Shown here piece after piece: positions 1,866 to 62,752 of a stretch of DNA of 64,000 nucleotides (position 1 is the stretch's first letter; each line of letters opens with the position of its first letter). This stretch comes from Octopus vulgaris. Lineage: Eukaryota. The stretch covers positions 16,864,001 through 16,928,000 of the forward strand of contig OX597821.1 in the NCBI GenBank assembly GCA_951406725.2. The letters run 5' to 3'. The notes under the pieces were generated by a model. That model was given only the letters and a program-made list of their open reading frames with translations, made no database searches and had not been told where the DNA came from. Both the position numbers and the translations under genes were made by a program.

Positions 1866-2140
<275 letters not shown>

Positions 2141-2154
2141 ATACGTTCATATCC

Positions 2155-2585
2155 ATGACTGATGGTTCCAGATTCATTCATACTGCGAGTTACCTTCGGC
2201 AGATGTCCTCTTCAATAGCCTAGGAACGATAAAAGCCCTGTGAGTGGATACCGTTGACGTTGTATATAGGTATGTGTGTCTTTGTGTGTGTGTATGTTCG
2301 TGTGTGTTTGTGTGTGTACGTGTATTTGTATGTGCGCGCGCATGTGTGTCTCTGTGCGTGTGTCTGTGTCTGTGTGCGTGTGTGTGTTCGTTAGCATCTT
2401 TATGTTTGTTTCCCATCACCGCTTTACAACCGGTTGTGGTTTGTTTGCGTACACATAAATTAGAGTTTCGGTGAGCGTGAGCGACATAGTAATAACAGGC
2501 TTTAAAAATGTATGTAGTGGGGCCAGTTTGAACTAAAATAGTCCTACAGTGGGCACCGCCTTATGACTGAAAGTAGTAAAATACT
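2155..2585 (+). mobile_element. Degenerate SINE family A copy
   Basis: Diverged match to the 5' half (gccctgtgagtggat) and 3' half (acaaccggt..atgactgaaagtagtaaa) of the copies at 44142 and 57184. Confidence 0.6.
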
Positions 2586-2603
2586 ATAATATATATAAAT
2601 ATA

Positions 2604-3388
2604 CGTGGTATGATCCAGAACTATCTCGACTATAGTAACGAAGCTAAAGCACGCAGAATGAAACCACTGTGCATGCGCACTAATATTTAACGTTTTAGCT
2701 CACTTCCGCTGTTTACAGCAGTACTTGGAAGTAACGTGTGTGGCGTGTGATTGCCGCACTGAACATGACAGAGAAATTTGAGCAGAGAATCTGCATCAAA
2801 TTATACCAAATGCTTGGAGATGACTGCTTAGAGTCCTACATCAAGTTTTCAACAAGTTTTCATCGTTCTCGACACAACCAAGGAGAGTGATTTTTTGATT
2901 AACTGAAAGCAGTTTTGGCACAGACTTGGCAGACACTCATCTCATACCCAAATCGTCAGTGATAATGGACTGAACTGAACTGTAACTAATCTGCACACGA
3001 CGATGTTCCCTGCATGCACATCTGCGATGTTTTTCTCAGTTCTTCTAGTTGCGGGTCTTCCATTACGTTCGTAAAAACCGACATTTTTCGGCCACCTTGG
3101 AAACGTCTGAGCAACTCGTACACTTGTGTGTGGCTCATACACCCTTCTCCATAAATGTTCTTAAGTTTGCGTTTTCCTCTGAGAAGGTATCGCCATGACA
3201 ACTTTCTCTGTCATGATCAATGGGACGATCACACGCTACACACCTACATTCTAGGCACTGCTGTAAACAGCGAAAGTGAGCTAGAACGTTAAAAATTAGT
3301 GCGCATGCACAGCTGAGCCCAAGGTCAATTCATGCCAAACAGCTTCACTCTGTGTGCTGCAGTCCGGATGTTTATTGATCAAGCCTCG
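2604..3388 (-). mobile_element. Mariner-derived non-autonomous element built from two inverted 5' ends
   Basis: About 170-bp inverted arms with TA flanks. Each arm contains the start MTEK.. (ATG at 2765 on +, 3214 on -). The minus strand encodes HTH-like YGEGCMSHTQVYELLRRFQGGR and SVQSIITDDLGMR*VSAKSVPKLLS (WVPxxL-like). Confidence 0.8.
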
Positions 3389-4474: not shown

Positions 4475-5245
4475 GATTTGCATCATTGTCTCGGACCCAA
4501 CAACTCGAGAAATACGCCTTCAAGACGTCAAAAAACACTATTACAACGCCAATATCCCTCCACACTCATATACTATGGAATAAAACGTGCCAAGGAACTC
4601 AACAATAACACACTGAAAACCACCCAACACAGTAACTTACCGAACCTCAAAATACCTCCATACATTTCCACCCACAACCCCCAAAATATCGGAGCATACA
4701 CCACAATCATACAAAACCTCCCCTTACTATCCATGGACCCAAAAAATGAATAATATTATCAATACACATAAAATCCTTAAATGCAAAAGGCAACATAAAT
4801 CATTGAAAAAACTCTTAACAAATGCCAAACTTCACACTACACATCCAGCCCATCAGTTAAAAAATGTGTACGCCCTAACTGTGGTGTCTGCCCCTTGAAG
4901 GCTCTGAATTTACTTTCAAACAAGGAACAAAGTTTAAAATCAAGACCAATTTCGCTTGTTCCTCCGAGAACCTCATTTACGTCCTTACATGCGCATGTTG
5001 CCAACGCAATTATATTGGACAGACGAGCCTTCCTTTACGCAGAAGAGTAGTAGTCCATAAAGAACAGATAAATCTCCCACAATACTGTCAAATTCCACTC
5101 AGTAGCTACATAGAATCTTGTGCTAGAAATAAAAATCCCAAATTCCGTGTATTCCCTTTCTATCAATGGGAAGACAAAATCTCTACACAAGAAAGAATCA
5201 ACTAGGAGAATCATTTTATTGAAAAATTCCAAACGCTTCTTAATA
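4475..5245 (+). pseudogene. Penelope-like element relic: RT thumb/linker and GIY-YIG endonuclease
   Basis: Frameshifted translation gives LLQRQYPSTLI..GIKRA, KKCVRPNCGVCP and NLIYVLTCACCQRNYIGQTSLPLRRRVVVH (GIY-YIG). Confidence 0.85.
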
Positions 5246-6004: not shown

Positions 6005-6310
6005 CATGCATATTGGCCAGACCACGGCAGAATTAGGCTAAGTATTATCAAAAATTAGTGCATGAAAATTGGAGATTATGAGCTATTAACAATTATATGG
6101 ATATTATTGACCTTCTTTAGTACTGCGAAAAGACAGTGGCTGCTTATTTACATTAATATTTTCAGTTAGAGAACTGCATGTCGTAGAATTATCGGGTAGT
6201 TTGATAAAAGTGGCAGCTTTAGAAAATCCATAGATTCTAACAATTGTTTCTTAATGAAATACCGTTTCACGGTATGTGCTCGTGGTCATATGATTGTAAT
6301 AAAAATAATG

Positions 6311-6355
<45 letters not shown>

Positions 6356-6381
6356 TTAATAATAATAATAATAATAATAAT

Positions 6382-6429
<48 letters not shown>

Positions 6430-6433
<4 letters not shown>

Positions 6434-6820
6434 GAAAAAAATGCTTTCTAATTGATGTATCAATACCGGCTGATGACAACGTGTCTCTAAAAGAAATGGA
6501 GAAACTCTCAAAATACAAAGACCTGGAAATAGAGGTAACTAGAATGTGGAATCTGAAAACAGAAACAATTCCTATCATAGTAGGTGCATTAGGCATGATA
6601 AAAAAATATTCAGACAAATACATAACAAAAACACCAGGACTTGCAAACACATATAACATACAGAAAATTGCACTACTAGGCACTGCACACATCCTACGCA
6701 GAACACTTTCCATACAATAACCATCAGAGCATCACAACAAATCACAGCACATACCCAAGGCACACAGAGCTGTGCTCGGTAGTGAAGTGAAAGCACGCTA
6801 TAAAAATAAAACTACCGAAT
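6430..6820 (+). mobile_element. Heavily 5'-truncated R4/Dong-like LINE in (AAT)n
   Basis: Near-identical to 15305-15697 (CFLIDVSIP..K..KYKDL..PIIVGALG plus 3' UTR). (AAT)n lies upstream and (GAA)n downstream. Confidence 0.9.
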
Positions 6821-9900: not shown

Positions 9901-10274
9901 CTACTGATCTCACGCTCTAATTATTCCTATTTCAAATTTTAAGGGATCCTGGAATCAAGCGGGCATGATGGGCCGATAAATAAGCAACTTCGCTTCTCCT
10001 TATCTATAATTGTTATGTACGGTCTATTATTTCCTAACTTTTCGTCGGTTTGAATAGGAAAGTTCTACAAAATTTCACAGTACTCCAACTCCAGTACTCT
10101 TTCGACTTGATGATTGCACTATGTGTTTGCAGCTTCAAGTCCCTATTTCTGGCACGTAGTTCTCGGGGGTAATCCAGTGTGACACAGAGTGTGGCCCTTG
10201 GAATACACGTACAGAGAGAAACAGGAAGAAAGTGTGAGAGAAACTTGTGATGAAAGACTACAGTAGAGTTTGAC

Positions 10275-12395
10275 GGCAACTGTGCAGATGAGTAGCAAAG
10301 ATGTTGGTATGGAATTTGGGATTCAGAAATGTGGTGTAACGATTCTGAAAAGGGGGAAAATCAGTAAAAGCCATGGAATCAAGCTGGAAAGTGACGAAAC
10401 TATAAAGGAGGTCGGAGAGGAAGGATATAAGTACCTGGGTATAATTGAAAGAGATAAGATGAATGAACAAAAGATGAAAGAAATGTACAGGAAAGAGTAT
10501 TTGAGGAAAATTCGGCTTGTGCTCCAATTGAAACTATATCGCCGCTATAAGATTAGAGCAATTAACACGAGAGCGGCTGCTTTGATGAGATATGTGGCAG
10601 GAATAGTATCTTGGAAGTAGCATGAATTACAAGAGATAGACCGTAGAACACGTAACGTAATGACAATGAACAAGGAAAACACCTCATGAGTAGAATAGTC
10701 TGGTTTGATATGACAAGGGGAGTAAAGAAGAAATGATTGAGGGTGTGGAAATGCAGGAAACCTTAATAGTGAACGAAGCCGTTGATCCAACACAATTTAA
10801 GAAAGACCAGAGCGAGAGCAGAGGAAGAAAATTTGGCAGGACAAGAAAATAAATCTGGTACCTATTTAATCATCGATGGATGGATGTAAATCAAAGTCAA
10901 CAACAACAACGGCTTGACAGAGAACTGAGCCTAAGTAAAAGTTAACAATGGCTCTAAAGCCTGGATCAAAACCAGAAATGGAAAAACTGACTCTCGCTGC
11001 ACAAGCCCCAATGGCTAACCGCAAACAACTATGAATGCAAAATAATGAAAACAGGACCCAGCATCAAATGTAGAATGTGCGAACCAGCACAATGAGCAAA
11101 TAGGTAATAGCATCTTTGGCTGCACAGTCCTTTCCAGATCCAAATATATATACAGACATGACCGAGTATATGGTTATAGCCACTGGACTATATGCCAACA
11201 CAACAGCATAAAAGCTAACAAGAAATAGTCTAAACATGTTCGAAAGAAAGAACATGAGAACGACCAAGCTCTTATATCTGGGATATGCCTGTTCAAACGG
11301 ACAAACAAATAAAAGCTACTCGCACAGACGTAACAATCAAGGACTGGAAAAAGTACTTGCTTATTGATAGACACTACGGTCCCTTATGACCAAAATATTG
11401 TCCGAAAAGAACTGGAGAAATTGTCAAAGTACAAAGACCTCAGAACTGAAGTATTCAAGATGTGGAGCACGAAGGACAAAATAATGTCATTAATAATTAG
11501 AGCATTGGGTATGTAGAAAAACATTGAAGCCATACCTGGACCTTCAACATTATACAATATCCAACAAACAGCGCTACTAGGAAGGGTATTATCAGCATAC
11601 CGAGGTTACTACCCCAAAGAAGACGCAGATAGAATATATTTATCCCGAACAGAAGGAGGCCGTGGCCTGATATAGATAGAGAACTATTATAAAATAACGA
11701 CAGTTGGACTAGAAAAGTACGTAAAACAAAAAGAAAATAGAAGACTTCTACATGTAATAAAACAGCATGAGATATAGAAAACGCTATTTCTATACACATG
11801 GAGGCGACAAAATACAATACAAAAAATAAACTATGATACACTGACCTCAGATGACAACATAACAGAAATAGTGAAAGAGACAAAAATCATGAAAACGGAA
11901 CTACAAAACTTACTAAACAAGGAATGAAGAGAAAAATCGCTGCAAAGCTTGACAGAGAAGTGAGCCTAAGAAAAAGTGGAAAAATTGTCAAAGTACAAAG
12001 ACCTCGAAACTAAGGTGTTCAAGATGTGGACCATGAAGGGGGCAAACATTACCATTAATAATTGGTGCACCGGGCATGATTAAAAAAAAACATATGAACA
12101 ACAACTGAAAAGCAATAATTGGATCCTCGACACTAGCCACTATCCAAAAAATAGCCCTACTAGGAACAGCCCACATTCTAAGCACGACACTATCAATTCA
12201 ATAATACAACTGAAAACAATTTGCAAACATATGGCACACGCTACATAGCGGATATCCAATAAAATATACTACCACCAGCAGTTCTTTACGCAACGCATTA
12301 CACACACAACACAGTAATTCATCAAAAGACCACACCTCTGCAACAAGAAGGTGCAACAGGTAATGCGGTAGAAATCGCCTGAAACTATCAAATGT

Positions 12396-13407: not shown

Positions 13408-13642
13408 TCTCGTGGCTGGAAGATGGTCGGGATTCACGACAATAATTACAATAATTACATTAAAGCACGTGCATCAGTGATTGCTGATTATGAACGTTGC
13501 TTAAGAAAACACTGCATTTTTCATTGCCACCTTATTTATTACCCAATACTCCTACCAATAACAATGACCCCAGTTTAACAGCTGCTACTGTACTCAATCA
13601 TAAGTGTATGCGACTTCGTGTGATTATAAGTCCGTAATAATG

Positions 13643-13695
<53 letters not shown>

Positions 13696-13720
13696 TATTA
13701 TTATTATTATTATTATTATT

Positions 13721-15697
13721 GACTACAAAAAGGCGTTTGATAGCATCCCCCACACATGGATCCTCGAAACACTAGCCATTAACAAAGTAGCACCAACAAT
13801 CATAAAATTCATAGAGCACTCTATGAATAAATGGCAAACAGTCCTACACCTCCAAACAAAAGAGGGACTCATGAAAACCAAAGACATTCCCATTAGAAGA
13901 GGAATATTCCAGGGAGATACGCTCTCTCCACTCCTTTTCTGCTGGGCACTGTCACCTCTATCTGATATGCTAAATAGAACTGGATGCGGATATAAATGTT
14001 ACGGCAAAACGATCAGCCACCTTTTATATATGGATGACCTAAAACTATACGCTGCAAATGACAAACAGCTGGAAACACTATTAAAGACAGTTCATGGATT
14101 TACCAAAGAAATAGATATGAAATTTGGATTAGAAAAATGCGCCAAAGTAACCATGATAAGAGGAAAACTAGTTAAGAGTAACAACATCACACTAGATGAA
14201 GCAAATGAAATAAAAGAATTAGACCAAAGCCAAACTTACAAATACTTAGGAATCCATGAACTAGATAAGACACAACACACACAAATGAAAGAGAAAATAA
14301 AAAAAAGAATATTATAGACGAGTTAGATCAATACTAAACACAGAGCTCAATGCTAAAAACAAGATAATAGGTATCAACACTTTAGGTGTCCCAGTTATAA
14401 GTTACAGCTACAATATCCTTAACTGGACACGAAATGAACTGACCAAAATAGACAGGAAAACAAGAAAAATAATGACAGGATCTAGGATGCATCACCCAAA
14501 ATCTGACATAGAAAGACTATATATACAACGTATAGAAGGTGGTAGAGGCCTTATACAGCTGGAAAACTACTATAAAATAACCACCATAGGACTGCAAAAA
14601 TACCTACTTCAGAAGGAAGGAAAACTGATCCAGATAGCAGCAAAACACGAGCAAAACAAAAAACTGTTCTCAGTATTTAAGGAAGCTGACAAATACAAAC
14701 AAGAAATCATACCACCTAATAAACACAAAGAAGAAGAAGAAGAAGATGATGAAGAAACAACAAAAGCTATAAAACAAATGAAATCCAAACTAAAAATAGA
14801 ACAGCAACGAGCCATGATAAAACGATGGCAAGAAAAGCCCCTTCATGGTAAATACTGCACTAAACTAAACGCAAAAGAAATAGACAAAGAAAAATCCCAG
14901 CAATGGTTGAGAAGCTCAGGACTCAAAGCAGAAACAGAGGGATTTTTAATTGCAGCACAAGACCAAAGCCTCCCCACCAGAAATTACCAAAAACATGTAA
15001 TGAAAAGAAATATTACAAGTAACTGCAGAATATGTGGAGATGGACAAGAAACAATAAATCATATTATCTCTAGCTGCCCAGTCCTGGCTAAGAAGGAATA
15101 TATTCACAGACATGACAGAGTTGGAACCTACATACATTGGAAGCTATGCCAACATTATGGAATAACAATAGAAAAAAGATGGTATAGGCACACACCAGAA
15201 AAGGTCACAGAAAACGAGAAAGCAACCATACTCTGGGATATGCCGATACACACAGATAGAGAAATTAAGGCCAACAGACCAGATATAGTTGTCAGAGATC
15301 ATGAAGAAAAAAATGCTTTCTAATTGATGTATCAATACCGGCAGATGACAACGTGTCTCTAAAAGAAATGGAGAAACTCTCAAAATACAAAGACCTGGAA
15401 ATAGAGGTAACTAGAATGTGGAACCTGAAAACAGAAACAATTCCTATCATAGTAGGCGCATTAGGCATGATAAAAAAATATTCAGACAAATACATAACAA
15501 AAACACCAGGACTTACAAACACATATAACATACAGAAAATTGCACTACTAGGCACTGCACACATCCTACGCAGAACACTTTCCATACAATAACCATCAGA
15601 GCATCACAACAAATCACAGCACATACCCAAGGCACACAGAGCTGCGCTCGGTAGTGAAGTGAAAGCACGCTATAAAAATAAAAATAAAACTACTGAA
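13721..15697 (+). mobile_element. 5'-truncated R4/Dong-like non-LTR retrotransposon (RT, CCHC zinc knuckle, restriction-like endonuclease), frameshifted
   Basis: DYKKAFDS, GIFQGDTLSPLLF, YMDD, YKYLG, CRICGDGQETINHIISSC, RHD and RPDIVV motifs. Frameshifts lie in A-runs near 14300 and 15310. Flanked by (TAA)n, the known Dong target. Confidence 0.95.
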
Positions 15698-19030: not shown

Positions 19031-20710
19031 AACTTAGATAAACTTAGATATGTTTCGACCAAAGATTGGTCCAGGCCATGTCTAACTTAATAGCACCACC
19101 TGATAGGATTATTCGAATCCTGTTTAAGTCAAGTTTTGTTTAAGTCAAGTTTTGTTCAAGTAGTGAGTTCTTGTTGGGTGAGTTGTATCCAATTATGGGT
19201 GGCTTATCTGGTATTCTTTGAAGGAATCTATCCAGACTCTGTTTAAAGTTGATGGGATCCTTTTCCTCTTTGATCTCCCTCGGGACAATGTTAAATAGGG
19301 CAGGCCTGTTGAGGAAAAGAAATTATGTTGCAGTGTACATGTATGTTGTGATCTTGAATTGTGCAGAGGACGTATAGCCCGTGGTCCAAGTCTTGGATGA
19401 ACCTTGAAGCTAATGTTTAGGTCGTTTGGGCAAAGTTGGCGGTATATTTTCCACATCGTACAAATGATGTACCGCTCACGGCGACGCTGGAGGGAGTAAA
19501 GTTTCAAGGCTTTAAGGCGATCCCAATAATCGAGAGAAGCCATGCCTTCAATTCGTTTAGTGAGTGCCCTCTGGGGTGACTCAATTCTGGAGATATTTTG
19601 TCTTGTGTGAGGAGACTACAGTGGGCAGCAGTATTCAAGGTGTGGCCGTACAAAGGAGGAAAAAAGTGGTATGATGACACCTTGTTCTCTGGACCGAAAG
19701 TTCTTAAGATCCAGGAACTCATCCTACGAGCTATATCGACCTTCTTGTTGATGTGTGTACTCCAACTGAGATCGTCATCAACAATTACACCCAGGTCTCT
19801 GATATTGTTAGAGGCTGTGAGCGGTTCCCCTGAAGAGAGTATGGTTGTTTTAGTGAGGAATTTCTTCCAAAATGCATCAGCTCAAATTTTCCCTCATTCA
19901 GTTGCATTTTGTTTCTGTCTGCCCGTTGACTCACAGCATATAGATCAGACTGGAGTTGAGTTCGGTCTGCTTCTTCATTGACGATTTGCTGGAGCTTAGT
20001 GTCATCAGCAAATATTTTCACTTTGCAGTAATGTACGACCCTGGAAAGGTCGTTTATGTAAATTATGAAGAGTAGCGGACCCAAAACAGTTCCCTGGGGA
20101 ACACCGCTGGTGACTTTTGCTGGGTTTGAGTGGACTCCATCAACTACAACATGTTGTGTTCTATTCGCCAGGAAATACTTCATCCAGTGTAGAACTTTTC
20201 CACGGATTCCAACATTTGCCAATTTTGAGAGTAGGATATTATGGTCTACCCTGTCGAACGCTTTACTGAAGTCAAGATATATGACGTCAGAGTTCGAACC
20301 TGTTCCCAAGGCTTTGAGTACATCTTTAATGTGGTGTAAGAGCTGTGTTAGACAGTCCCTGCCGCAGCGAAAGCCATGCTGATTTGCATTTAGGAGTTTG
20401 TGGGTCTCCAGGAAGTCAGCTATCCTTGATCTTAACACTCTTTCAAACACTTTAATGATGTGGGAGGTGAGTGAGATTGAGCGATAGTTGACTGCGAGAG
20501 ATCTGTTTCCCTGTTTGAAAACCGGGATGACCGACTGGGATAGAAACTGTTTCGGTAAATAACCTGCGTCTAACGAATTTCTCCAGAGGTTGGTCAGAGG
20601 GACTGCAAGTTGGTATCTACATTCCTTCAGGAGACTAGCGGGAAATCTATCAGGGCCTACAGCAGAGTAATGTTTGACCTCATTTATTGCTGCTACGATG
20701 TCAGTGGCAG
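19031..20710 (-). mobile_element. 5'-truncated CR1-like LINE (RT and C-terminus), frameshifted
   Basis: GPD, YRSISLTS, NQHGFR, YLDFSKAFD, GVPQGTVLGPLLFIIYIND, FADDTKL and YWDRLKALKLYSLQRRRERY. The 3' end has a hairpin and a tandem TATCTAAGTT tail. Confidence 0.95.
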
Positions 20711-23091
20711 TATGTATATATATATATATATATACATACATATACATATATGTATATGCATGTTTGTACATGTATATATGTATTTTATTTATATCATATA
20801 AGTGTATATATATATATATAGGTATATAGGTATGTATGTATGTATGAATGTATGTATTAATGTTTTCGGATGTATTATGGAAGACATACACCAGCAGATA
20901 CAACTATAATTTTGCTGCGAGCAGATTCACTGTTCGAACGGATCCAGTGATCCATTTTACTTGGAGAGTTAATATGAAATGTGTTTTAGAGAATATAAGA
21001 AACATGAAAGTGCTAAGCCTGACAATAACGCAATTCTATGGTACAAAACGAAAGCTGAAAATATCAGTAACCAGAGAAAGAATAACAACATAAACAGCAA
21101 TGGTAGAAACAAGACCAACTGCTGTGATAGCAATCGTAAAAACGATGCAGAAATAAATAATGCAAAGAAATCTAAAATTGATGTACATGTTACCATGGCT
21201 AAGACGAACAACAAACATTGTTGAGAATACCTGCGAATATTTAAAAGAAATGTGTAACGCAATTACTATTATCAAGAGCAGTAACAAGAACAATATCAAT
21301 AACAACAGCGGCAGAACAGACAGCAAATAACACATCAATAACAGTGACAAAAAGAAAATTTCAGATTAAAATATCAATAACAGTGGTGGTGCCCCAGCAT
21401 GGCCGCGGCCTTCGGGCTAAAACATTTTTGAGGATTTAACTAACTATGAGAAGAATAATAAAAACAAGAGATACACAAGTGACTGTAGCACATTTGCAAG
21501 AGTTACCAGCACCGTGGTTTAGCACTGCCATACAAAAGTGAATATGTTCTGAGGTGATCGTAATTCCAGAAGACGAATTAAATTTTTCATTACGAACAAT
21601 TTCATAAAAAAAATTATGTAAAGCGATTTTTTGCCTCAGGAAGTAGAATGTGTGTTAGAATGCATATGGTACCACAGTTATGCTTCACGTGTGAGTGGAA
21701 ACTTTATTCCGAAGTGAGGAGGAAAAAAGTCTATATTTTGGGGGAATTTCGCTAACCTAATTCCAAAAATATTTACAATCGCTCCACCAAAATTCCAAAG
21801 TGTTGCTAAATTGACCCCGGTAGATTTTGATCACGACAGTGTAATAACCGTGGGAAGGTGATGGAGTTTCCGTCTTCCTCACACGTAAAATGGCCGGGAA
21901 CTTAAGTGGTGATTCAGATGTTAATGACACCCAAAAATACAGTAAAATTTCTGAATCAGTTCAATACTGAATGTATATAATGAATTAAAACATCAGAGAA
22001 GTGCAAACAAATATGCTTCAGTTGATGTTGTACGAATTAATCAGCCCTTGGCTATGAATCGAAATCAACAATAATCGAAATATTTAACATAAAACAATGA
22101 ATGAAAAACGTGCGAATTTATGCATCAAAATTGAAGAAAGAACGACATAATTTTCGAGGGTTTCTTCGAGTTCGATTCTATTTTCCGTCCGTCACAGGCT
22201 ATTGAAACGAGAACCAGTCACCGTGTTAATATAATCCATTGTTGTGTCCAGCACACAAAATATTTAGCCTTGTGTATATGTTAGATATCATTACTATATC
22301 ATTTGTATTGGTGGCAGTCGTTATTTCGGCATTAACGTATAATTTAATTGTGTAAATGAAGATAGACACCAGAGAGTAACAATATTCCACAGTATTAACA
22401 CTGCCAAGAGAGAAGTAATACGAAATGCATTGCAGCTAATGAAAGATAACAGCTGCCTTCGGTGTGTGTGGGTGGGGGGTTCATGGTACAAAGATTGTTT
22501 ATAGTCATTAGAAGGGCTAGACTAATTATAGCTGATAAGAAACACGCAAAATAAGTCAAATCTCTTGGGTTATTTTCTTCTAACATTGCGTTTATCAGAC
22601 ACTTGTAAACTACATTGAGAAGCTAATGATAAAACAGCAATGACCTAAATAAAATTCACGGAATTACTTTTATTGATACGTAATCGCAAAGACTAAGGTA
22701 CACATAAATACATGCATATATACATGTGCATGCTCACACACATGCTCAAACACACACGCTCACACACACACGCGCGCGTATAAGCTTCGATATTTCCTAT
22801 TTCTTATTGGCTTTGTGTAGTATTTCGCAGGGAGTCGGAAAAGTATTTGCAGGAGCAAAAATATTCCGTGTTACAGGAAAACATAGATGATAATTGGTGA
22901 GAGGGAAAATTGTAATTGAATTGTGTATAAGTGTTAGTAAAAGGTAGAGAAACATTATTTTGTCATGCTAAAGTGTACTATCTTACCTTGTTTTCTGCAA
23001 TCTCCCTGTCTCTGAATGCTAAAACATTCACTTTCACTCATCACCACTCATTATACACGCATGCATCTACATACAGGTATATCTATAAATA

Positions 23092-31097: not shown

Positions 31098-32104
31098 TAT
31101 AGAATGATTTGAGTGTGATTTAGCTGCTATTTCTGCTACCATATAGAGTCTTTCACATGAAGATGTTGTTGTTATAAAACTGTAGTGGTGGTAACATCAT
31201 TTGTTTGTGGATGTTCTGTCTACTGTAGATATGTGATTGAAATGTGTTCTCACTTTCATCTGTTATATTCCTTCTCAATTTATATCGCTACGTGCTGTGG
31301 TTATTCATGAAGTTGTTGACACATTTAGTCTTCTATATTCTGAGTTGTCTATCATATTCTAGGTGTGGAATAGAGTGAGAGCTGTTGGATAGTGTGAACG
31401 CTCTAGAGTAGCTTCGATCTGCTATCTTGTTTTGACTCCGTTTCCAGGTCTCAGTGTATAAATGTATTTTTTGTTAATAAGCATACATTCACTTTACGAA
31501 CCACGAATACAAGGCAATGATCCGGTGAAAATCGGAACAAATTCTGACCCAATGATGGAGCCCCAACATTGTGGATTTAGGTTGCGGACGAAGAATTACA
31601 CGTTATGTGCTCAATAACACGTAATGTGGCGTTTAGATTTAACAGGAATCGGTTCAGAAGTGATTCTGTTGCTACTTACAGATTCAGGTCCCTTGATTTT
31701 AATTACGCCTTAAGAAACGTATAAGTACGCATACGCACACTCGTGCACACACACACACACACACGTCTGATATTTACCTATGTTCAGTCCCCTGACCTTC
31801 AGAAATCTATATGGTCATCAAGTCTATCAATGTCGTCCCATTTATACTCACATTTAATTTTCCCTCTTTTTTTTTTTCACTTTACTCCATTTTCATTGCC
31901 CTCTCTAACATTTCTTTTCGGCCAATTTCTCTTGCAATCACTTCTGGAACTTTTAGCTTTCTTTCGCTCGCTTTCCACATCCTTATCAGCTTCTTATCTG
32001 TTTATTGTTGTTCAGCAAATAATAAAAATACAATTTAAGATTCATTTTAAGAGAACTTGAGAGACTTACTCTACATAGTTTTAATGCTTCTCAGTGCTTA
32101 TACA

Positions 32105-32430
32105 ATTGCAGCGTGGAAGGTGTTTGTAAGCCATTTAAGAAACACAAAAGCCGTTCGATTCACTTCAACATTTAAGTTTAATTTGTTAAAATATTTTCGT
32201 CGCTTTAAGACCGCGACCTGTTCACTGACAAAAGTCCGTGCTTTGTCAGTGAACAGGACGTGGTCTTAAAGCGACGAAAATATTTTGACAAATTAAACTT
32301 AAATGTTGAAGTGAATCGAACGGCTTTTGTGTTTCTTAAATGGCTTACAAACACCTTCCACGCTGCAGTTGTTTTCGTTTTAGCACACGATCTCAGATCA
32401 AATCTCTTGCTATGCAAGTACATCTTCGTA
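32105..32430. mobile_element. Fold-back element with 126-bp arms, a hammerhead-like motif in each arm and a 12-bp TSD
   Basis: Arms 32107-32232 and 32242-32367 with a 9-nt loop and a 63-nt tail. AGTGCTTATACA occurs at 32093-32104 and 32431-32442. Confidence 0.85.
32182..32232 (-). ncRNA. Type I hammerhead-like motif, G3-C8 core variant
   Basis: TTTGTCA-GTGAACA-G-GTCGC/GCGAC-GAAA-ATAT-TT-TAACAAA. The mirror copy on + at 32242-32292 has a perfect 7-bp stem I. Confidence 0.6.
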
Positions 32431-40057: not shown

Positions 40058-40185
40058 CATATCTATACAATATGTTACATTACTCGGTAGTCAAGATAAA
40101 ACTCTGAGTTTCAGATGCCGAAGTGGAAATCCACAACACCATCTCTTCGGCTATTTGAAAACGTTATGAAAAAATACCGTTAAAA

Positions 40186-41556
40186 ATGAAGGGAAATTAC
40201 TCTGTCTCTAAAGAACTGCTAGATAAAGCCATAATCTTCGCTAGTGACTTCATAGAAATTAGTACCAATGATAAGGATATAATCTTCCATGCTAGAAAGA
40301 CATTACTTTTCAGTGAGAATGCAAAGTGGGTAAAAAACACCGACACGGAGGGCGCTTTCGATGTGAGCATGGGTTCATACGATGGGGCAGGCATCTGTGA
40401 TCTAATTGGACTCTTTCTCCTAGATACCTTCAGTAAGACATTCCCTAACGTACATTTCGCCATCTACAAAGATGATGCCCTCGCCTTAACAGCTAATACA
40501 AATGGACCAGCACAAGATCGTTTTAGGAAGGATATTATCCAGTTAATGAAACACTTCGGACTTAGTATAACTATAGACACTAACCTGACGGTTGTCAATT
40601 TCTTAGACGTTTCCTTAGATCTTAATAATAATATTTATAAGCCTTATAGGAAGCCCAATGATAGACTAAGTTATATTAATGTAGGTTCATGCCATCCCCC
40701 TATAGTATTCAAAAATTTAGTTAAAAATATTAGTAAGAGGATTTCTAGCCTCTCATCTAATGAGGACATCTTCAATAGCGTTGCCCCAGTTTATAATAAA
40801 GCTTTAAAAGATAGTGGTTTTAGCGAAAAAATAAAATATACACCTATCACCAGCCCAACAATAAGGAAAAGGAATAATAGAAATAGGAAGGTCATCTGGT
40901 TTACGCCCCCTTACTCACCCGAGGTGGCCTTCAATATAGGTAAATATTTCCTAGCACTGATAGATAGACATTTTCCAGTTAACCATGCTTATAGGAAACT
41001 CTTCAATAGACACAATTTAAAAATTAGTTTTAGTTCAACTACCAATTTTAAAAACATAATCAATCATAACATACAAAAAACACAAGAAGAAAACAGCTGT
41101 TCATGCAGGAATAAAGAATTGTGCCCGCTAAATGGAGCTTGCATGTCCAAGACCATCATATATGAAGCTACCGTAAACTCTATAACCACTAAAGACACCG
41201 TTTCGACGAAGAAATACGTGGGCCTGACAGAGGGTAATTTCAAGGCCAGGTTCAATAACCACACTTTGAGCTTTAGGCACTGGAACAAAAGAAAAGCGAC
41301 ACAATTATCCAATCATATTTGGTCTTTAAGAGATAAAGGTGTCGATTATAACATACAATGGAAGATTTTGGCCAGATGTAAGCCCTATACTAACGGCAGC
41401 GGAAGGTGCGGTTTATGCGACATGGAGAGATGGCTTATCTGGAAAAGCAGCTTAGACCCTACCACATGTCTAAATACAAGGACAGAGCTTTTCGGATCAT
41501 GCCCACATGTGACTAAATTTCTGTTACGTTTTTGGTCCCCTAAAGAAAACGGATAG
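40186..41556 (+). CDS. Penelope-like reverse transcriptase / GIY-YIG endonuclease, N-terminally truncated (456 aa)
   Basis: MGSYDGAGICDLIG, YKDD, VNFLDVSLDL, SCHPP, CSCRNKELCPLNGAC and IIYEATV..KKYVGLTEGNFKARFNNH. RT motif A is missing and the ATG comes from the inverted pLTR. Confidence 0.85.
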   Translation: MKGNYSVSKELLDKAIIFASDFIEISTNDKDIIFHARKTLLFSENAKWVKNTDTEGAFDVSMGSYDGAGICDLIGLFLLDTFSKTFPNVHFAIYKDDALALTANTNGPAQDRFRKDIIQLMKHFGLSITIDTNLTVVNFLDVSLDLNNNIYKPYRKPNDRLSYINVGSCHPPIVFKNLVKNISKRISSLSSNEDIFNSVAPVYNKALKDSGFSEKIKYTPITSPTIRKRNNRNRKVIWFTPPYSPEVAFNIGKYFLALIDRHFPVNHAYRKLFNRHNLKISFSSTTNFKNIINHNIQKTQEENSCSCRNKELCPLNGACMSKTIIYEATVNSITTKDTVSTKKYVGLTEGNFKARFNNHTLSFRHWNKRKATQLSNHIWSLRDKGVDYNIQWKILARCKPYTNGSGRCGLCDMERWLIWKSSLDPTTCLNTRTELFGSCPHVTKFLLRFWSPKENG

Positions 41557-41750
41557 AACATGCTTTCTGTGTTATGTCCCAAGAAGATTTTATATATTTT
41601 TATATATTTTTATATATTTTTATGTATTTTTATATAATTTTTATGACGAAAAATGCGAGCGATGTATAAGTACGCAGGCAAAGCAGAGTTATAACAGAGT
41701 AATTTCCCTTCATTTTTAACGGTATTTTTTCATAACGTTTTCAAATAGCC

Positions 41751-41813
41751 AGATAACCGAAGAGATGGTGTTGTGGATTTCCACTTCGGCATCTGAAACT
41801 CAGAGTTTTATCT
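41751..41813 (+). ncRNA. Type I hammerhead ribozyme-like motif in the PLE pLTR (C4 variant)
   Basis: AGATAA-CCGAAGA-GATG/CATC-T-GAAA-CTC-A-GAG-TT-TTATCT, with a 6-bp stem I. Confidence 0.65.
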
Positions 41814-41943
41814 TGACTACCGAGTAATGTAACATATTGTATAGATAAATTTCCTCTATTTACATAATATTGAGGTCTCTTTCTTTCTTTTGTTATCTTA
41901 CCGTTTTATCAATATATATATACATAGATATATATATATATAA

Positions 41944-41995
<52 letters not shown>

Positions 41996-41999
<4 letters not shown>

Positions 42000-42420
42000 C
42001 TTGATATAATTAGGGTTCAGCAAAAAGAAATTGCTTTACCGCATACCGAACTTTTAGAAATAGCAGCCAAAGAATTTAGCTATTTCTTCTACTATAAGAA
42101 GAGTCTCCCAGACAATGTATACTCAAAAACAATTCACGTAGGCATAGAGGGAAAAATAACGAAAGTTCACTCGAAATTTGATTACTTGTGAACACGTTTC
42201 TGGGTTAGTCAGATATAGAGATGCTAGAAATACATCCCTATTCTAACATTCCCGTCATCAACACAATGATTTCATTAAATTTGAGAGCACTAAAAATCGA
42301 ACATACCCAACTGATTTGAATGACTTCAGACAAACCATCTTCCACACCCAGTACTAACGAATTCAAACCGTACGAATGAGGCTCCGCATCGTCCCCTGTC
42401 CACCCAACATTTATAATCCT
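41996..42420 (-). mobile_element. Non-coding HHR-bearing element, same family as 55224-56002
   Basis: Shares taattagggtt.agcaa..ccgaa.tttagaaatagcag.caaa..tagctatt..tctacta with 55333-55417. An HHR fold lies at 42186-42266. Confidence 0.7.
42186..42266 (-). ncRNA. Type I hammerhead-like motif (U3 variant)
   Basis: TTGTG-TTGATGA-cGGG..CCCa-GAAAC-GT-GTT-CACAA. Confidence 0.6.
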
Positions 42421-43282
42421 CTCTCTCTAGATAATATTCTTGTTGTTTATTTTTTTATGTTATAATTGCTCTCGTTATAACTGTTTTTGTGGTTGTAGTT
42501 ACTAGTGTTGGTATTGTTGGATTCGTGTTCTTCCTCTCACATGCATTCAGTATTAAATAAATTCTAAAACAGACCGGTAGCTTGAAAATTTATGAGAATG
42601 TAATTCGCATATGATGACATTAATAGTTTGCTGACATATTCAAACATTTAGCACTATAAAATTTCAAGTGAAATAATTTCAAACAGAAATAAGATCCTGT
42701 CTGGAGTTTACTGACTGAGATGACAACATAATGTTGGATCAAGCGTTTTTACAGACTTCTGATGTATTGAATATATAGGCTATCTATTTTGTTCTATGCT
42801 TTCCTTTTCCTTGAACTTGCTTAGATAAGCTTTCAGGAAAGCACAAACTCACAGATACGCAAACAGTTACATAGACACACACAAACACACAGGCACACAC
42901 TCACACACTTTAACTCGCTTACACACACATACATTTGTCTAGCTACGTATCTATGAATCAATCTCTCTCCCTCTCTCTTCATCTCCTCCCTCTCTTTCTC
43001 TCTCTCTTACACATACACAGACACATACACACGTACTCTGACTTTATATATGTGTGTATACAAATATATATGGAATTTCTGTCATTGCCGGTCAGAACTC
43101 ATTTACATTAAAATACTTCCATCATTTTGTTGCATAGCATTTCAGTGTTAAATGCGAGGGTGTATATAAAGGTGTTTATGCGTGTGATCAGACATATGTG
43201 TGGCGGTGGAGTCATAATATGTAATCAATTGCAAGTGTGTATGTTTCTTAGCGTGTCTGTATGTCTATGTATGTTTTAGTAT

Positions 43283-44385: not shown

Positions 44386-44610
44386 GTGTGTGTGTTTGTG
44401 TGTCTGTGTTTGTCCCCCTAGCATTGCTTGACAACCGATGCTGGTGTGTTTACGTCTCCGTCACCTAGCGGTTCGGCAAAAGAGACCGATAGAATAAGTA
44501 CTGGGCTTACAAAGAATAAGTCCCGGGGTCGATTTATTCGACTAAAGGCGGTGCTCCAGCATGGTCGCAGTTAATGACCGAAACAAGTAAAAGAGTAAAA
44601 GAGTAAGAGT
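44142..44610 (+). mobile_element. SINE family A, near full length
   Basis: Head, internal (TA)n and tail as in the other copies. Confidence 0.9.
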
Positions 44611-44623
44611 ATATATATCAAAG

Positions 44624-44933
44624 TATCATTAGAGACAGAAAACCCCATAAAATTCAACAAATCAGAAGATAAATTCAACCATGTCATAGAATATTACATT
44701 TAATACTTACTATTCATGTTCAAAGTTGTCGACTACACGTGTTTCATGAGGTTGAATACGATTATAAGGGGAGATTCTGTTATAGACTGCGTGTCTCAAG
44801 AACAGTATACAACCTCATGACACGTGTGGTCGACAACTTTGAACATGAATAGTAAGTATTAAATGTAATATTCTATGACATGGTTGAATTTATCTTCTGA
44901 TTTGTTGAATTTTATGGGGATTTTTGTCCCTAA

Positions 44934-44938
<5 letters not shown>
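44624..44938. repeat. Fold-back palindrome (about 135-bp arms, 45-nt loop) containing half a hammerhead
   Basis: Arms 44624-44759 and 44805-44938. The minus strand has GAAAC-ACGT-GTA at 44734-44745. Confidence 0.85.
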
Positions 44939-44978
<40 letters not shown>

Positions 44979-54288: not shown

Positions 54289-55015
54289 ATAGCAGCAGTA
54301 GCAGCCAGCCGTCACATCACTAGAGGATATGTGTAGGAATGTGATTTTTCTCAGTTCATTTACCAAGCAATGCTTGCTTACAATCGATTTTAACATATTA
54401 GAGATAAGTAAGCACAAATTAAATAAGATCTTCGCTGACCGATGATTTAACGACGGACATATGTCTAGATTTCAGTTGGTTTTAATAATCACTTTATTGT
54501 TTATTGCGATATTATATATTGTTTATTAGAAAGAGCTTTCTTTTCTTTCTTTTTATTTTTACCCTAGAGTAAAGTGTCAATTTTCTTATCGACACTAGCC
54601 TCTCTTGGCCTTCTTATTGTGTTACCATCTTGCTGATTTATAGCAAATCTCAAATGGAATATTAATGGCAAAGAAAGACTCATAAATAATTTTAATTGAC
54701 GTTCATTCTGTTCTTTTGCTTATTATTTTTATAATTTCATATTACTTCTTTCGACTTCCGTTGTGGAAAGTATAGATTGGTGTGCTAGGTTAGACGACTT
54801 TTCTTTATGCAGTATCATTCAGAAAGCAGTGATCAATATATATGAGATGGCACCCATATAATACATACGCTCTCACACATTTAAGACACACACACAAACA
54901 CATATATATATGTGTGTATGTATGCATGTATGTATGCGTGCGTGTGTTTTGTGTCTATATATACATATATGTGTGTGTTTGTGTATATATCTGCACATAC
55001 ATACATGCCTCTCCC

Positions 55016-55058
<43 letters not shown>

Positions 55059-55183
55059 CATACACACACATGCATATATAAACACATACATACATATGTT
55101 TATGTGTGTATACATATATATATATTACGTACTAGTATTATTCACAGTGAAGCTATATATATATATGTACGTGTGTATGTATA

Positions 55184-55223
<40 letters not shown>

Positions 55224-55226
<3 letters not shown>

Positions 55227-56002
55227 TAACAATATAGGGTGAAATTAATTAATTTGGAATAATCATTAATTACACCAAGTAGATCTCGGCATGTAAAAGC
55301 CTCATTCGAAGAAAGTTTAAGTAATACTAAGTAATTAAGGGTTTAGCAACGAATTGCCTCACCACACACCGAATTTAGAAATAGCAGTCAAATAGTTATA
55401 GCTATTATTTCTACTAAAAGGGAGATCCCAGTAAAAACACAGCACTTGAAACGCAAACACAGACAGGTAAGAGAGAATGAAATGACGGCAATCTATCATA
55501 CACTTTTAAGTCACCTACGGACGTACGTTTCGAAATTAAGTTTTAGGAAAGCATAAGAATTAGATAATCATGTCTTACCCAACTTCTTTTCTCATCAGCG
55601 TAGGACACTACAATTATGAATAATTGTATATTAAATTTCGAGATACTAGAAGGCATCATCTCAACTCAGTATCAGAGCGAGCTAAAGCCGTTACCAGTAT
55701 CACCAAATTCAAAGTGTGAATGAAAGTTTGTGTCACCAACCCCTTCCCACCCGCGTGTAGCCAAGACAAGATGCTGTGGTCATTTACTGGGATGAAATAT
55801 GGTTATCAGTAACAATATAGGGTGAAATTAATTAATTTGGAATAATCATTAATTACACCAAGTAGATCTCGGCATGTAAAAGCCTCATTCGAGGAAAGTT
55901 TAAGTAATACTAAGTAATTAAGGGTTTAGCAACGAATTGCCTCACCACACACCGAATTTAGAAATAGCAGTCAAAGAGTTATAGCTATTCTTTCTACTAA
56001 AA
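55224..56002 (-). mobile_element. Retrozyme-like / PLE-derived non-coding element: 583-bp unit with a 196-bp terminal direct repeat
   Basis: 55224-55419 is nearly identical to 55807-56002. Central HHR, (TA)n flanks and no ORF. Confidence 0.8.
55514..55604 (-). ncRNA. Canonical type I hammerhead ribozyme (GUC)
   Basis: CCTACG-CTGATGA-GAAA..TTTC-GAAA-C(GTAC)G-TC-CGTAGG. All core nucleotides match and stem I has 6 bp. Confidence 0.85.
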
Positions 56003-56041
56003 TGTATATATATATACATATATATACATATATATATATAC

Positions 56042-56076
<35 letters not shown>

Positions 56077-56158
56077 CATATATATATACATACATATATT
56101 TATACATATATATATGTATATATATATACACATATATATATACGTATATATATATATA

Positions 56159-56190
<32 letters not shown>

Positions 56191-56215
56191 CATATACATA
56201 TACATATATATATAC

Positions 56216-56251
<36 letters not shown>

Positions 56252-56470
56252 TTATATGTATGTATATATATATATATATACCTATATATATATGTATATG
56301 TATATGTATATATATATATGTATATATGTATGTATATATATATACGTATATATATATGTGTATATATATATACATATATATGTATAAATATATGTATGTA
56401 TATATATATGTATATATATATATGTATATATATATATATGTATATATATATATGTATATATATATGTATA

Positions 56471-56508
<38 letters not shown>

Positions 56509-57183
56509 CACACGTACATATATATAGCTTCACTGTGAATAATACTAGTACGTAATATATATATGTATACACACATAAACATATGTATGTATGTGTTTAT
56601 ATATGCATGTGTGTGTATGTATGTATGTATATATATATATATATATATATATGGGGGAGAGGCATGTATGTATGTGCAGATATATACACAAACACACACA
56701 TATATGTATATATAGACACAAAACACACGCACGCATACATACATGCATACATACACACATATATATATATATGTGTTTGTGTGTGTGTTAAATGTGTGAG
56801 AGCGTATGTATTATATGGGTGCCATCTCATATATAAAGAGAGAGAGAGAGAGAGAAAGCGAGTGAGAGAGGGAGTGAGGAAAGTGGGAGAGAGTGAGAAA
56901 TGAGAGAGAACTGAATATTCACATCAATACATTTACTATTCCTACAACCTTTACTGCGTGATATTCCGTTCATATATACGTGTAACAAACAAAAACAACA
57001 CTTGCAAGAGGGGGACCGGTGTATTTACAAATGATTACTTTTAAACTATATCAGGTATAATCAATGATTTATTAGAATTTTCATCAGATCCTTTGGGAAG
57101 GTTTAATACCACAAATCTTACGTAACTTTCAAAGATCACCAACGTATTCCATGGCCAATCGGATGTTTAGACTTTATTTTCTA

Positions 57184-62143: not shown

Positions 62144-62218
<75 letters not shown>

Positions 62219-62223
<5 letters not shown>

Positions 62224-62752
62224 AAATAAGAAAATGGAGAAACACATCCTAATCAATGATCAGCTACCAGATAATACCCAATCACATAATTTATTAAACC
62301 ACTACATATGAACATTAAGATCAAACATAATAATATAGAACAAAACAATGTACATGAAAGAGTACCCACTATTGTATGGGTGTACCTCGTCTAATTTTCA
62401 TATTTAATTTAGTTTGTTCTTCATAATCTCTGAAGAGGCCTTGGGATATTTTTGTAAGTGTCTCATTTATAACTACATATTAACCTATCACACATGGCTA
62501 ATATGAGCATAATGAGGCACCCATATCTGCATGGCTGATGTAGTTTATATTTATATTTTTATTTATTTATATTCACTTATACATACTGTACTTATTGTAT
62601 CATATTACTCTTTCATGTACATTGTTTTGTTCTATATTATTATGTTTGACCTTAATGTTCATATGTAGTGGTTTAATAAATTATGTGATTGGGTATTATC
62701 TGGTAGTTGATCATTGATTAGGATGTGTTTCTCCATTTTCTTATTTTGTATA
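62219..62752 (+). mobile_element. Non-coding element with 146-bp inverted repeats and a decayed HHR in the spacer
   Basis: 62219-62364 is the reverse complement of 62606-62752. ATAATCT-CTGAAGA-GGCC..GGCT-GAtgt-AGTTTAT lies at 62423-62548. Confidence 0.7.

Follow-up and report, generated by a model that had tools for sequence, protein, structure and literature searches.

A 583-bp repeat lies in the 64,000-nucleotide stretch of Octopus vulgaris DNA analysed here (the window). It probably belongs to the non-autonomous Penelope-type retroelements, as one of the non-LTR retrozyme kind, copied from a template longer than one unit, and we hold the assignment to this class with considerable confidence. 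The repeat is a high-copy family. Its element class is already known, and the variant is the form of its hammerhead motif, in which stem II is drawn out into a long arm.

The insertion and its hammerhead motif

The insertion spans 55224-56002 on the minus strand and measures 779 bp, or 1.34 units of a non-coding 583-bp repeat. One full unit of 583 nt (36% GC) occupies 55224-55806. An upstream (5') partial copy at 55807-56002 resembles a pseudo-LTR and matches the downstream (3') repeat at 55224-55419 in 193 of 196 positions, at a period of 583. The inferred start of reverse transcription is 55224, which lies 296 nt 3' of the predicted ribozyme cut; the two ends of the insertion are 296 and 483 nt away from that cut. 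These measurements bear out the initial annotation, which had described a terminally redundant, non-coding unit of 583 bp, present in 1.33 copies and with its ends away from the cleavage site.

No stop-to-stop frame lying wholly inside 55224-56002 exceeded 69 aa, and the longest ATG frame on the unit read as a ring was 46 aa. A reading frame for reverse transcriptase (RT) and GIY-YIG nuclease, the mark of an autonomous Penelope-like element, was absent from the unit, and no continuation into an ORF was seen in the family contigs. The unit was also searched for the A/B box pattern of Pol III, which was not found. It shares with retrozymes a non-coding sequence, a GC content below 45% and a high degree of self-pairing.

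The insertion sits between (TA)n-rich tracts, with the target on the 3' side at 55018-55223 and the tract on the 5' side at 56003-56460. Both the pseudo-LTR partial tandem of non-autonomous Penelope-like elements and a microsatellite or AT-rich target are present. A partial-tandem layout and a microsatellite target site are the defining marks of insertions by Penelope-like elements, and the Hydra and Naiad elements insert into (TA)n (PMC8557442).

The left flank of the insertion (54837-55223) recurs as an inverted repeat at 56461-56835 (391 columns, 94%), and the differences between the two copies are almost only in microsatellite length. This inverted flank could stem from snap-back repair at (TA)n, from inverted copying of the Penelope type that took the flank along, or from a misassembly. 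The window holds eight local inverted duplications in total, of which one flanks the insertion; the others include 32102-32372, 44610-44952 and 62218-62752. The seven other inverted repeats weakened the case for the inverted flank as something special to 55224-56002, and the eight together indicate that the region rearranges or misassembles readily.

The minus strand of the unit contains a type I hammerhead motif with an intact core at 55514-55604. Stem I consists of six Watson-Crick pairs (55604-55599 with 55519-55514), and helix I is open, as in type I. The two core strands are CUGAUGA (55598-55592) and GAAA (55531-55528). Stem II begins with four pairs from G10.1-C11.1 (55591-55588 with 55535-55532) and passes into a 52-nt paired extension (55587-55536), which leaves 60 nt between the core halves. 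Stem III is a palindrome (55528-55521). Every conserved hammerhead base was present (CUGANGA, GAAA, the UH site, G10.1-C11.1 and A15.1-U16.1). The helix sizes of 6 bp (I), 4 bp (II) and a short palindromic III are canonical by the standard of PMC4209133. All the parts named earlier, namely a perfect core, a 6-bp stem I, an extended stem II and a palindromic stem III, were located at 55604-55514. The cut that had been placed between 55520 and 55519 coincides with the position predicted from the sequence (55520|55519), where C17 is 55520.

In the predicted fold, the pair probabilities were 0.92-0.97 for stem I and about 0.7 for stem II. Internal loops follow the 6 bp of stem I and the 4 bp of stem II, which in this model are the right positions for a candidate contact between loop 1 and loop 2. 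A hammerhead descriptor search of the window returned 55514-55604 as its single match, and the chance level of the descriptor was one match in total across 300 block-shuffled windows. The Rfam search of the motif gave no match at the gathering score, and no hammerhead family appeared among the 150 matches listed, out of 154, at E<=10. The matches at that threshold were dismissed as microsatellite-driven miRNA noise. Rfam probably misses the hammerhead because 60 nt separate the core halves. A published core search used a spacer of 7-17 nt (PMC8557442), and the long stem II is a form of hammerhead that both Rfam and such a search would miss. Within the family, the spacing of the core halves is 54-60 nt. 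A scan of viral contigs with the long-armed core pattern gave 0 matches. Twelve matches in metagenome contigs were put down to chance, as none had a stem I of 6 or a stem II of more than 2 pairs and none resembled the unit.

The circular fold of the minus-strand unit was predicted at -159.9 kcal/mol (z -6.4), with 0 of 60 shuffles as stable, and that of the plus strand at -112.7. It is the non-repeated part of the unit that accounts for this stability, with z values of -6.5 on the minus strand and -2.7 on the plus strand, and the repeated part folded unremarkably (z -1.5); for comparison, 30 control folds taken from the window spanned +1.5 to -4.3. On the minus strand, a long rod of about 370 nt (55425-55793) is predicted, which is contained within the unit and bears the hammerhead at its tip. 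In the unit monomer, mispairing across the cleavage site is predicted between the core positions 55596-55593 and 55523-55520 (P 0.72). The palindrome of stem III is predicted to be stable only as an intermolecular duplex (self-duplex -9.8 kcal/mol vs +1.7 for the lone hairpin). As modelled, a mispaired monomer with an intermolecular stem III is the dimer-dependent design reported for animal hammerheads (PMC4209133). The family variants broke 14 predicted pairs against 18.8 expected (P about 0.05), a marginal result only slightly below chance.

The repeat family and the ends of its copies

Part of the unit was contained in 20 of the 24 listed sequencing runs, from 9 studies and four organism codes. 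Four runs (X1, X3, X5 and X7) were aligned to the unit in the frame 55330-55912, which was chosen so that both insertion ends fall inside. The two DNA runs yielded 1,940 and 1,692 contigs and the other two 74 and 37, and all 30 bins were covered in 4/4 runs. No run containing the unit was on record as RNA; X5 and X7 may be RNA, and the runs speak neither for nor against expression. Summed contig depth was not equated with copy number.

In X5 and X7, which belong to one study, three contigs each made up the whole depth over the 5' part of the unit. All six crossed 55806|55807 with at least 31 letters on each side; they carried up to 38 differing letters, and some were about 10% diverged. The share of family contig sequence that continued into unlike sequence was 0, 0, 0.03 and 0.03 in the four runs. 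Given that diverged contigs cross the junction, the 583-bp unit is a family trait in X5 and X7 and not a truncation peculiar to this locus. Continuation of copies into a Penelope-like ORF, a possibility raised in the initial annotation, was not seen in these six contigs. The contigs of the DNA runs were too short to bridge 55806|55807 under the 31-letter rule. In X1, the summed depth at 55803-55818 was about 2,000-3,000, compared with 70,000 and 400,000 nearby, and was lowest at the junction. This dip could hide copies that leave the unit at 55803-55818.

Among the 40 of 100 variants listed, the core varied only at N7 (55594), and a variant at 55604 kept stem I as a wobble pair. A core so nearly invariant across the family suggests selection for cleavage. 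Both repeats of the insertion carry C at 55285/55868, a state that made up 0.01% and 0.14% of the summed depth in the DNA runs X1 and X3. In all, variants at 55813, 55818, 55847, 55850 and 55868 are rare or minor in the family and common to both repeats, which points to one template lineage and not to two random family RNAs. The window-type base at 55868 reached 12% and 25% of the summed depth in X5 and X7, far from its share in the DNA runs; this contrast may reflect RNA from few loci, a low-complexity library or another population. The wrap joint from 55912 to 55330 was set aside as proof of a ring, because the repeat of the locus itself generates it.

The window also contains a diverged, shorter relative on the minus strand at 41998-42405, which adjoins (TA)n and aligns to 55335-55752 of the unit (nhmmer E 1.5e-9, 216 of 406 columns identical). 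Its decayed hammerhead (42186-42266, minus strand) has a 5-bp stem I and a 46-nt paired extension, both of different sequence. Its core has U at positions 3 and 17, and the first pair of stem II is mismatched. The long-armed layout was kept in the relative despite the other stem sequences. The region 42100-42440 folded no better than shuffles (z -0.3).

Left ends flanked by (TA)n (3' on the hammerhead strand) were found for four copies: 55224 here, 55810 (equivalent to 55227) in X5, about 55325 in X7, and the left end of the relative. They group at two sites, 296 and about 195 nt past the cut (193 nt from its cleavage position in the relative, 195 in X7). Two end pairs within 3 nt have a chance probability of 0.0004-0.002 (4 ends; 21 of 192 loose ends listed). 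Should the X5 end belong to an allele of the present locus, one pair among three is left, and the chance is 0.04-0.07. Right ends are known for two copies. Summed depth, which is a weak measure of ends, rose 1.5- to 7-fold across 55810 within two bins in 4/4 runs. By the same weak measure, it dropped across about 55410 in 3/4 runs (ratios 0.57, 0.37 and 0.52; 1.7 in X1). The clustered ends favour preferred start sites over random permutation. Circular permutation of other copies, which had been singled out earlier as worth checking, was thus not what the few ends seen displayed. In the anole, the RT of a Penelope-like element nicks AT-rich targets and begins synthesis at two internal positions of its RNA (PMC11167929), and by analogy the two clustered end sites fit internal initiation by a Penelope-like RT.

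A small hairpin is predicted at 55797-55818; it spans the unit junction, and the 3' end of the insertion falls in its loop. It recalls how the anole element initiates in a stem-loop, but it is a weak lead, as pairs in it are broken by two common variants of the family.

Template of the copies and rival explanations

The anatomy of the insertion, its family, the shared junction and the (TA)n setting are established; the sequence of events from transcription through cleavage and ring closure to copying by an RT and GIY-YIG nuclease from another element is what we infer. The minus strand would be transcribed, and the RNA would fold into the rod with the ribozyme at its tip. With its short palindromic stem III, cleavage would work best when two copies pair, and the unit-length RNA thus freed could be circularised by a host ligase. 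The RT and GIY-YIG nuclease of a partner element would then nick (TA)n, and the RT would start internally at one or other of the preferred sites (about 195 and 296 nt beyond the cut). It would pass the intact ribozyme junction, complete one lap and halt 196 nt into the second, just before the rod base.

Since the insertion crosses the cleavage site, the ribozyme junction of its template was intact, having been either re-ligated (a circle) or never cut (a read-through RNA). We give the circle about an even chance, and a linear read-through RNA is a possible template to which we attach a smaller probability. With a single hammerhead and less than the two units of a tandem, the locus could not set a monomer free on its own by being cut twice; the contigs cannot show two-hammerhead tandems or circles, nor the strand or level of expression. 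Accordingly, we describe the copy as retrozyme-like in its working and do not file it as an active retrozyme; on its testable features it fits a non-autonomous Penelope-type partial tandem. Only one of nine Xenopus retrozyme dimers cleaved in vitro (bioRxiv 10.64898/2026.07.22.740005). The anole element, also in vitro, inserted without need of hammerhead cleavage and used mainly unprocessed RNA as its substrate (PMC11167929), an argument for a linear template. The initial annotation had proposed reverse transcription running more than once around a circular or tandem RNA. The part of this claim that is supported is the more-than-unit template, which fits the junction in diverged copies and the 55285/55868 variant shared by the repeats; the circle is not separable from linear read-through of a partial-tandem donor. 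Only tentatively do we put forward the full proposal, namely abundant 583-nt ribozyme RNA circles that form a family with a long-armed stem II and are copied by a Penelope-type enzyme from fixed internal priming sites.

The closest rival keeps the same element class and derives the copy, in the manner of an LTR, from a linear read-through RNA whose start lay in the upstream repeat of a donor that was itself a partial tandem, the hammerhead being incidental or serving only to trim the RNA. Penelope promoters sit in the pseudo-LTR (PMC8557442), which together with the use of uncleaved RNA by the anole element speaks for this reading. The depth drop near 55410 in 3/4 runs might mark a common 5' end near 56002, but the same drop is expected from stalling of the RT at the rod base (55425). 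A rare variant common to both repeats is compatible with a linear RNA too. On the other hand, the near-invariant core across the family suggests that cleavage was selected, and a Pol III promoter pattern was not found in the unit. On balance, we consider an origin of this kind rather unlikely.

Two further explanations were considered. The repeat might be a gutted or 5'-truncated copy of an autonomous Penelope-like element and so a by-product of an abundant parent. Its layout is that of a pseudo-LTR partial tandem, and the X1 depth dips at the junction. However, the junction is crossed by 6/6 of the X5 and X7 contigs over the 5' part of the unit, some of them variants with about 10% divergence; hardly any family sequence continues into unlike sequence, a coding remnant is lacking, and the rod is self-contained within the unit. 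We therefore regard a truncated parent as very unlikely. The terminal redundancy might instead have arisen when the RT jumped between two family RNAs, by a local DNA duplication, or by an assembly slip in this microsatellite-rich region. The eight local inverted duplications in the window, one of them flanking the insertion, lend some colour to the latter two. All three are highly improbable, as the junction recurs in other, diverged copies, and a jump between two random RNAs would seldom leave the same five rare or minor variants in both repeats. Copying of a more-than-unit template by a Penelope-type enzyme remains the reading that we prefer.

Related systems and Penelope-like remnants in the window

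The nearest known relatives in kind are the metazoan non-LTR retrozymes (PMC7229834; bioRxiv 10.64898/2026.07.22.740005). Like the present repeat, they have a non-coding unit of low GC content that pairs extensively with itself, and a canonical type I hammerhead with a helix I of 6 bp, a helix II of 4 bp and a short palindromic helix III. They likewise coexist with Penelope-like elements, and copying of their circles into more-than-unit cDNA by Penelope-like RTs has been proposed (PMC7229834, PMC7761336, PMC4209133). According to Li et al. 2026 (bioRxiv 10.64898/2026.07.22.740005), non-LTR retrozymes derive from pseudo-LTRs, their units range over 51-972 bp, and solo monomers are numerous. The 583-nt unit falls within that range, whereas the invertebrate retrozymes of the 2020 study measured 170-400 nt (PMC7229834). 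Metazoan retrozymes are described as arrays with at least two hammerheads, whereas ours is a dispersed 1.34-mer with one; of the classes in the 2026 preprint, it corresponds only to the derivative 'monomer' class. Circles are formed by animal retrozymes (PMC7229834) and are a proposal for the present repeat, whose stem II also differs in its 52-nt extension.

Penelope-like elements (the Hydra, Naiad and Neptune clades and the non-autonomous MRC1 of Chlamydomonas; PMC8557442, PMC11167929, PMC4209133) are alike in the pseudo-LTR partial tandem, the (TA)n target, a hammerhead upstream of the 3' end and two apparent 3' end sites. They differ in that our unit has no ORF and its end sites are about 100 nt apart, compared with a tail of 30-40 bp. 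Their hammerhead is minimal, whereas that of the unit is canonical with a long stem II, and a sequence link to a partner element was not found in the window. The Schistosoma SMalpha and W-elements (PMC8490949) and the newt and axolotl satellites (PMC7229834) are also repeats with type I hammerheads and a very short stem III, and cleavage of the amphibian satellites is dimer-dependent (PMC7229834). The present repeat differs from these in lacking a Pol III box pattern and in its longer unit and long stem II. Hammerhead variation is treated in PMC3088659, and the Schistosoma repeats in PMC8490949.

The circle model was already published for Penelope-like elements and retrozymes (Cervera 2014, 2020; PMC4209133, PMC7229834), and the idea is accordingly less new. 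The proposal that such elements are copied from RNA circles dates from 2014 (PMC4209133), a demonstration was not found in the literature examined, and cleavage was dispensable in one in vitro study (PMC11167929). Among literature titles and the openings of abstracts, neither the 583-bp family nor a long-armed version in such a repeat was found; supplements and repeat databases may contain the family. In a family as small, high in copy number and dispersed as this one, whose ends can be measured, the choice between circle and linear RNA becomes testable by counting laps, ends and shared private mutations. If the circle proposal is true, each of thousands of dispersed insertions would preserve its lap length and start site, and together they would form a direct genomic footprint of rolling-circle reverse transcription. 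It would also point to overlooked long-armed hammerheads, for example among the 'half-core' motifs noted in Naiad elements.

Host genes were not recognised in the window. By their motifs, several segments are presumably broken frames of RT-bearing retroelements and a DDE-transposase-like fragment (13604-15592, 6241-6720, 10267-10620, 19785-20903 and 577-876). A remnant of a GIY-YIG nuclease at 4879-5205 (Pfam E 0.002) lies between (TA)n tracts, and we take it to be Neptune-like from its motif. A 5'-truncated Penelope-like element occupies 40060-41912, also between (TA)n tracts and 14 kb from the insertion. Its 465-aa open frame (40159-41556) covers RT and GIY-YIG and carries a CxCX5C linker motif and CxxC and CxH motifs as in the Hydra clade. 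The coexistence with Penelope-like elements that characterises retrozymes is thus found in the window (40159-41556 and 4879-5205), with both Pfam scores below the curated cut-off. The unit had no similarity to the ends of these two remnants in a comparison with the relative at 41998-42405 as positive control, and a PDB sequence search with the neighbouring ORF gave no match. At its 5' end, the element at 40060-41912 bears its own 3' region again in inverted form (40060-40205 vs 41694-41847). Inspection by eye of its 3' region suggested a decayed hammerhead-like motif on the plus strand at 41751-41816, with a 6-bp stem I, an altered core and a near-palindromic stem III.
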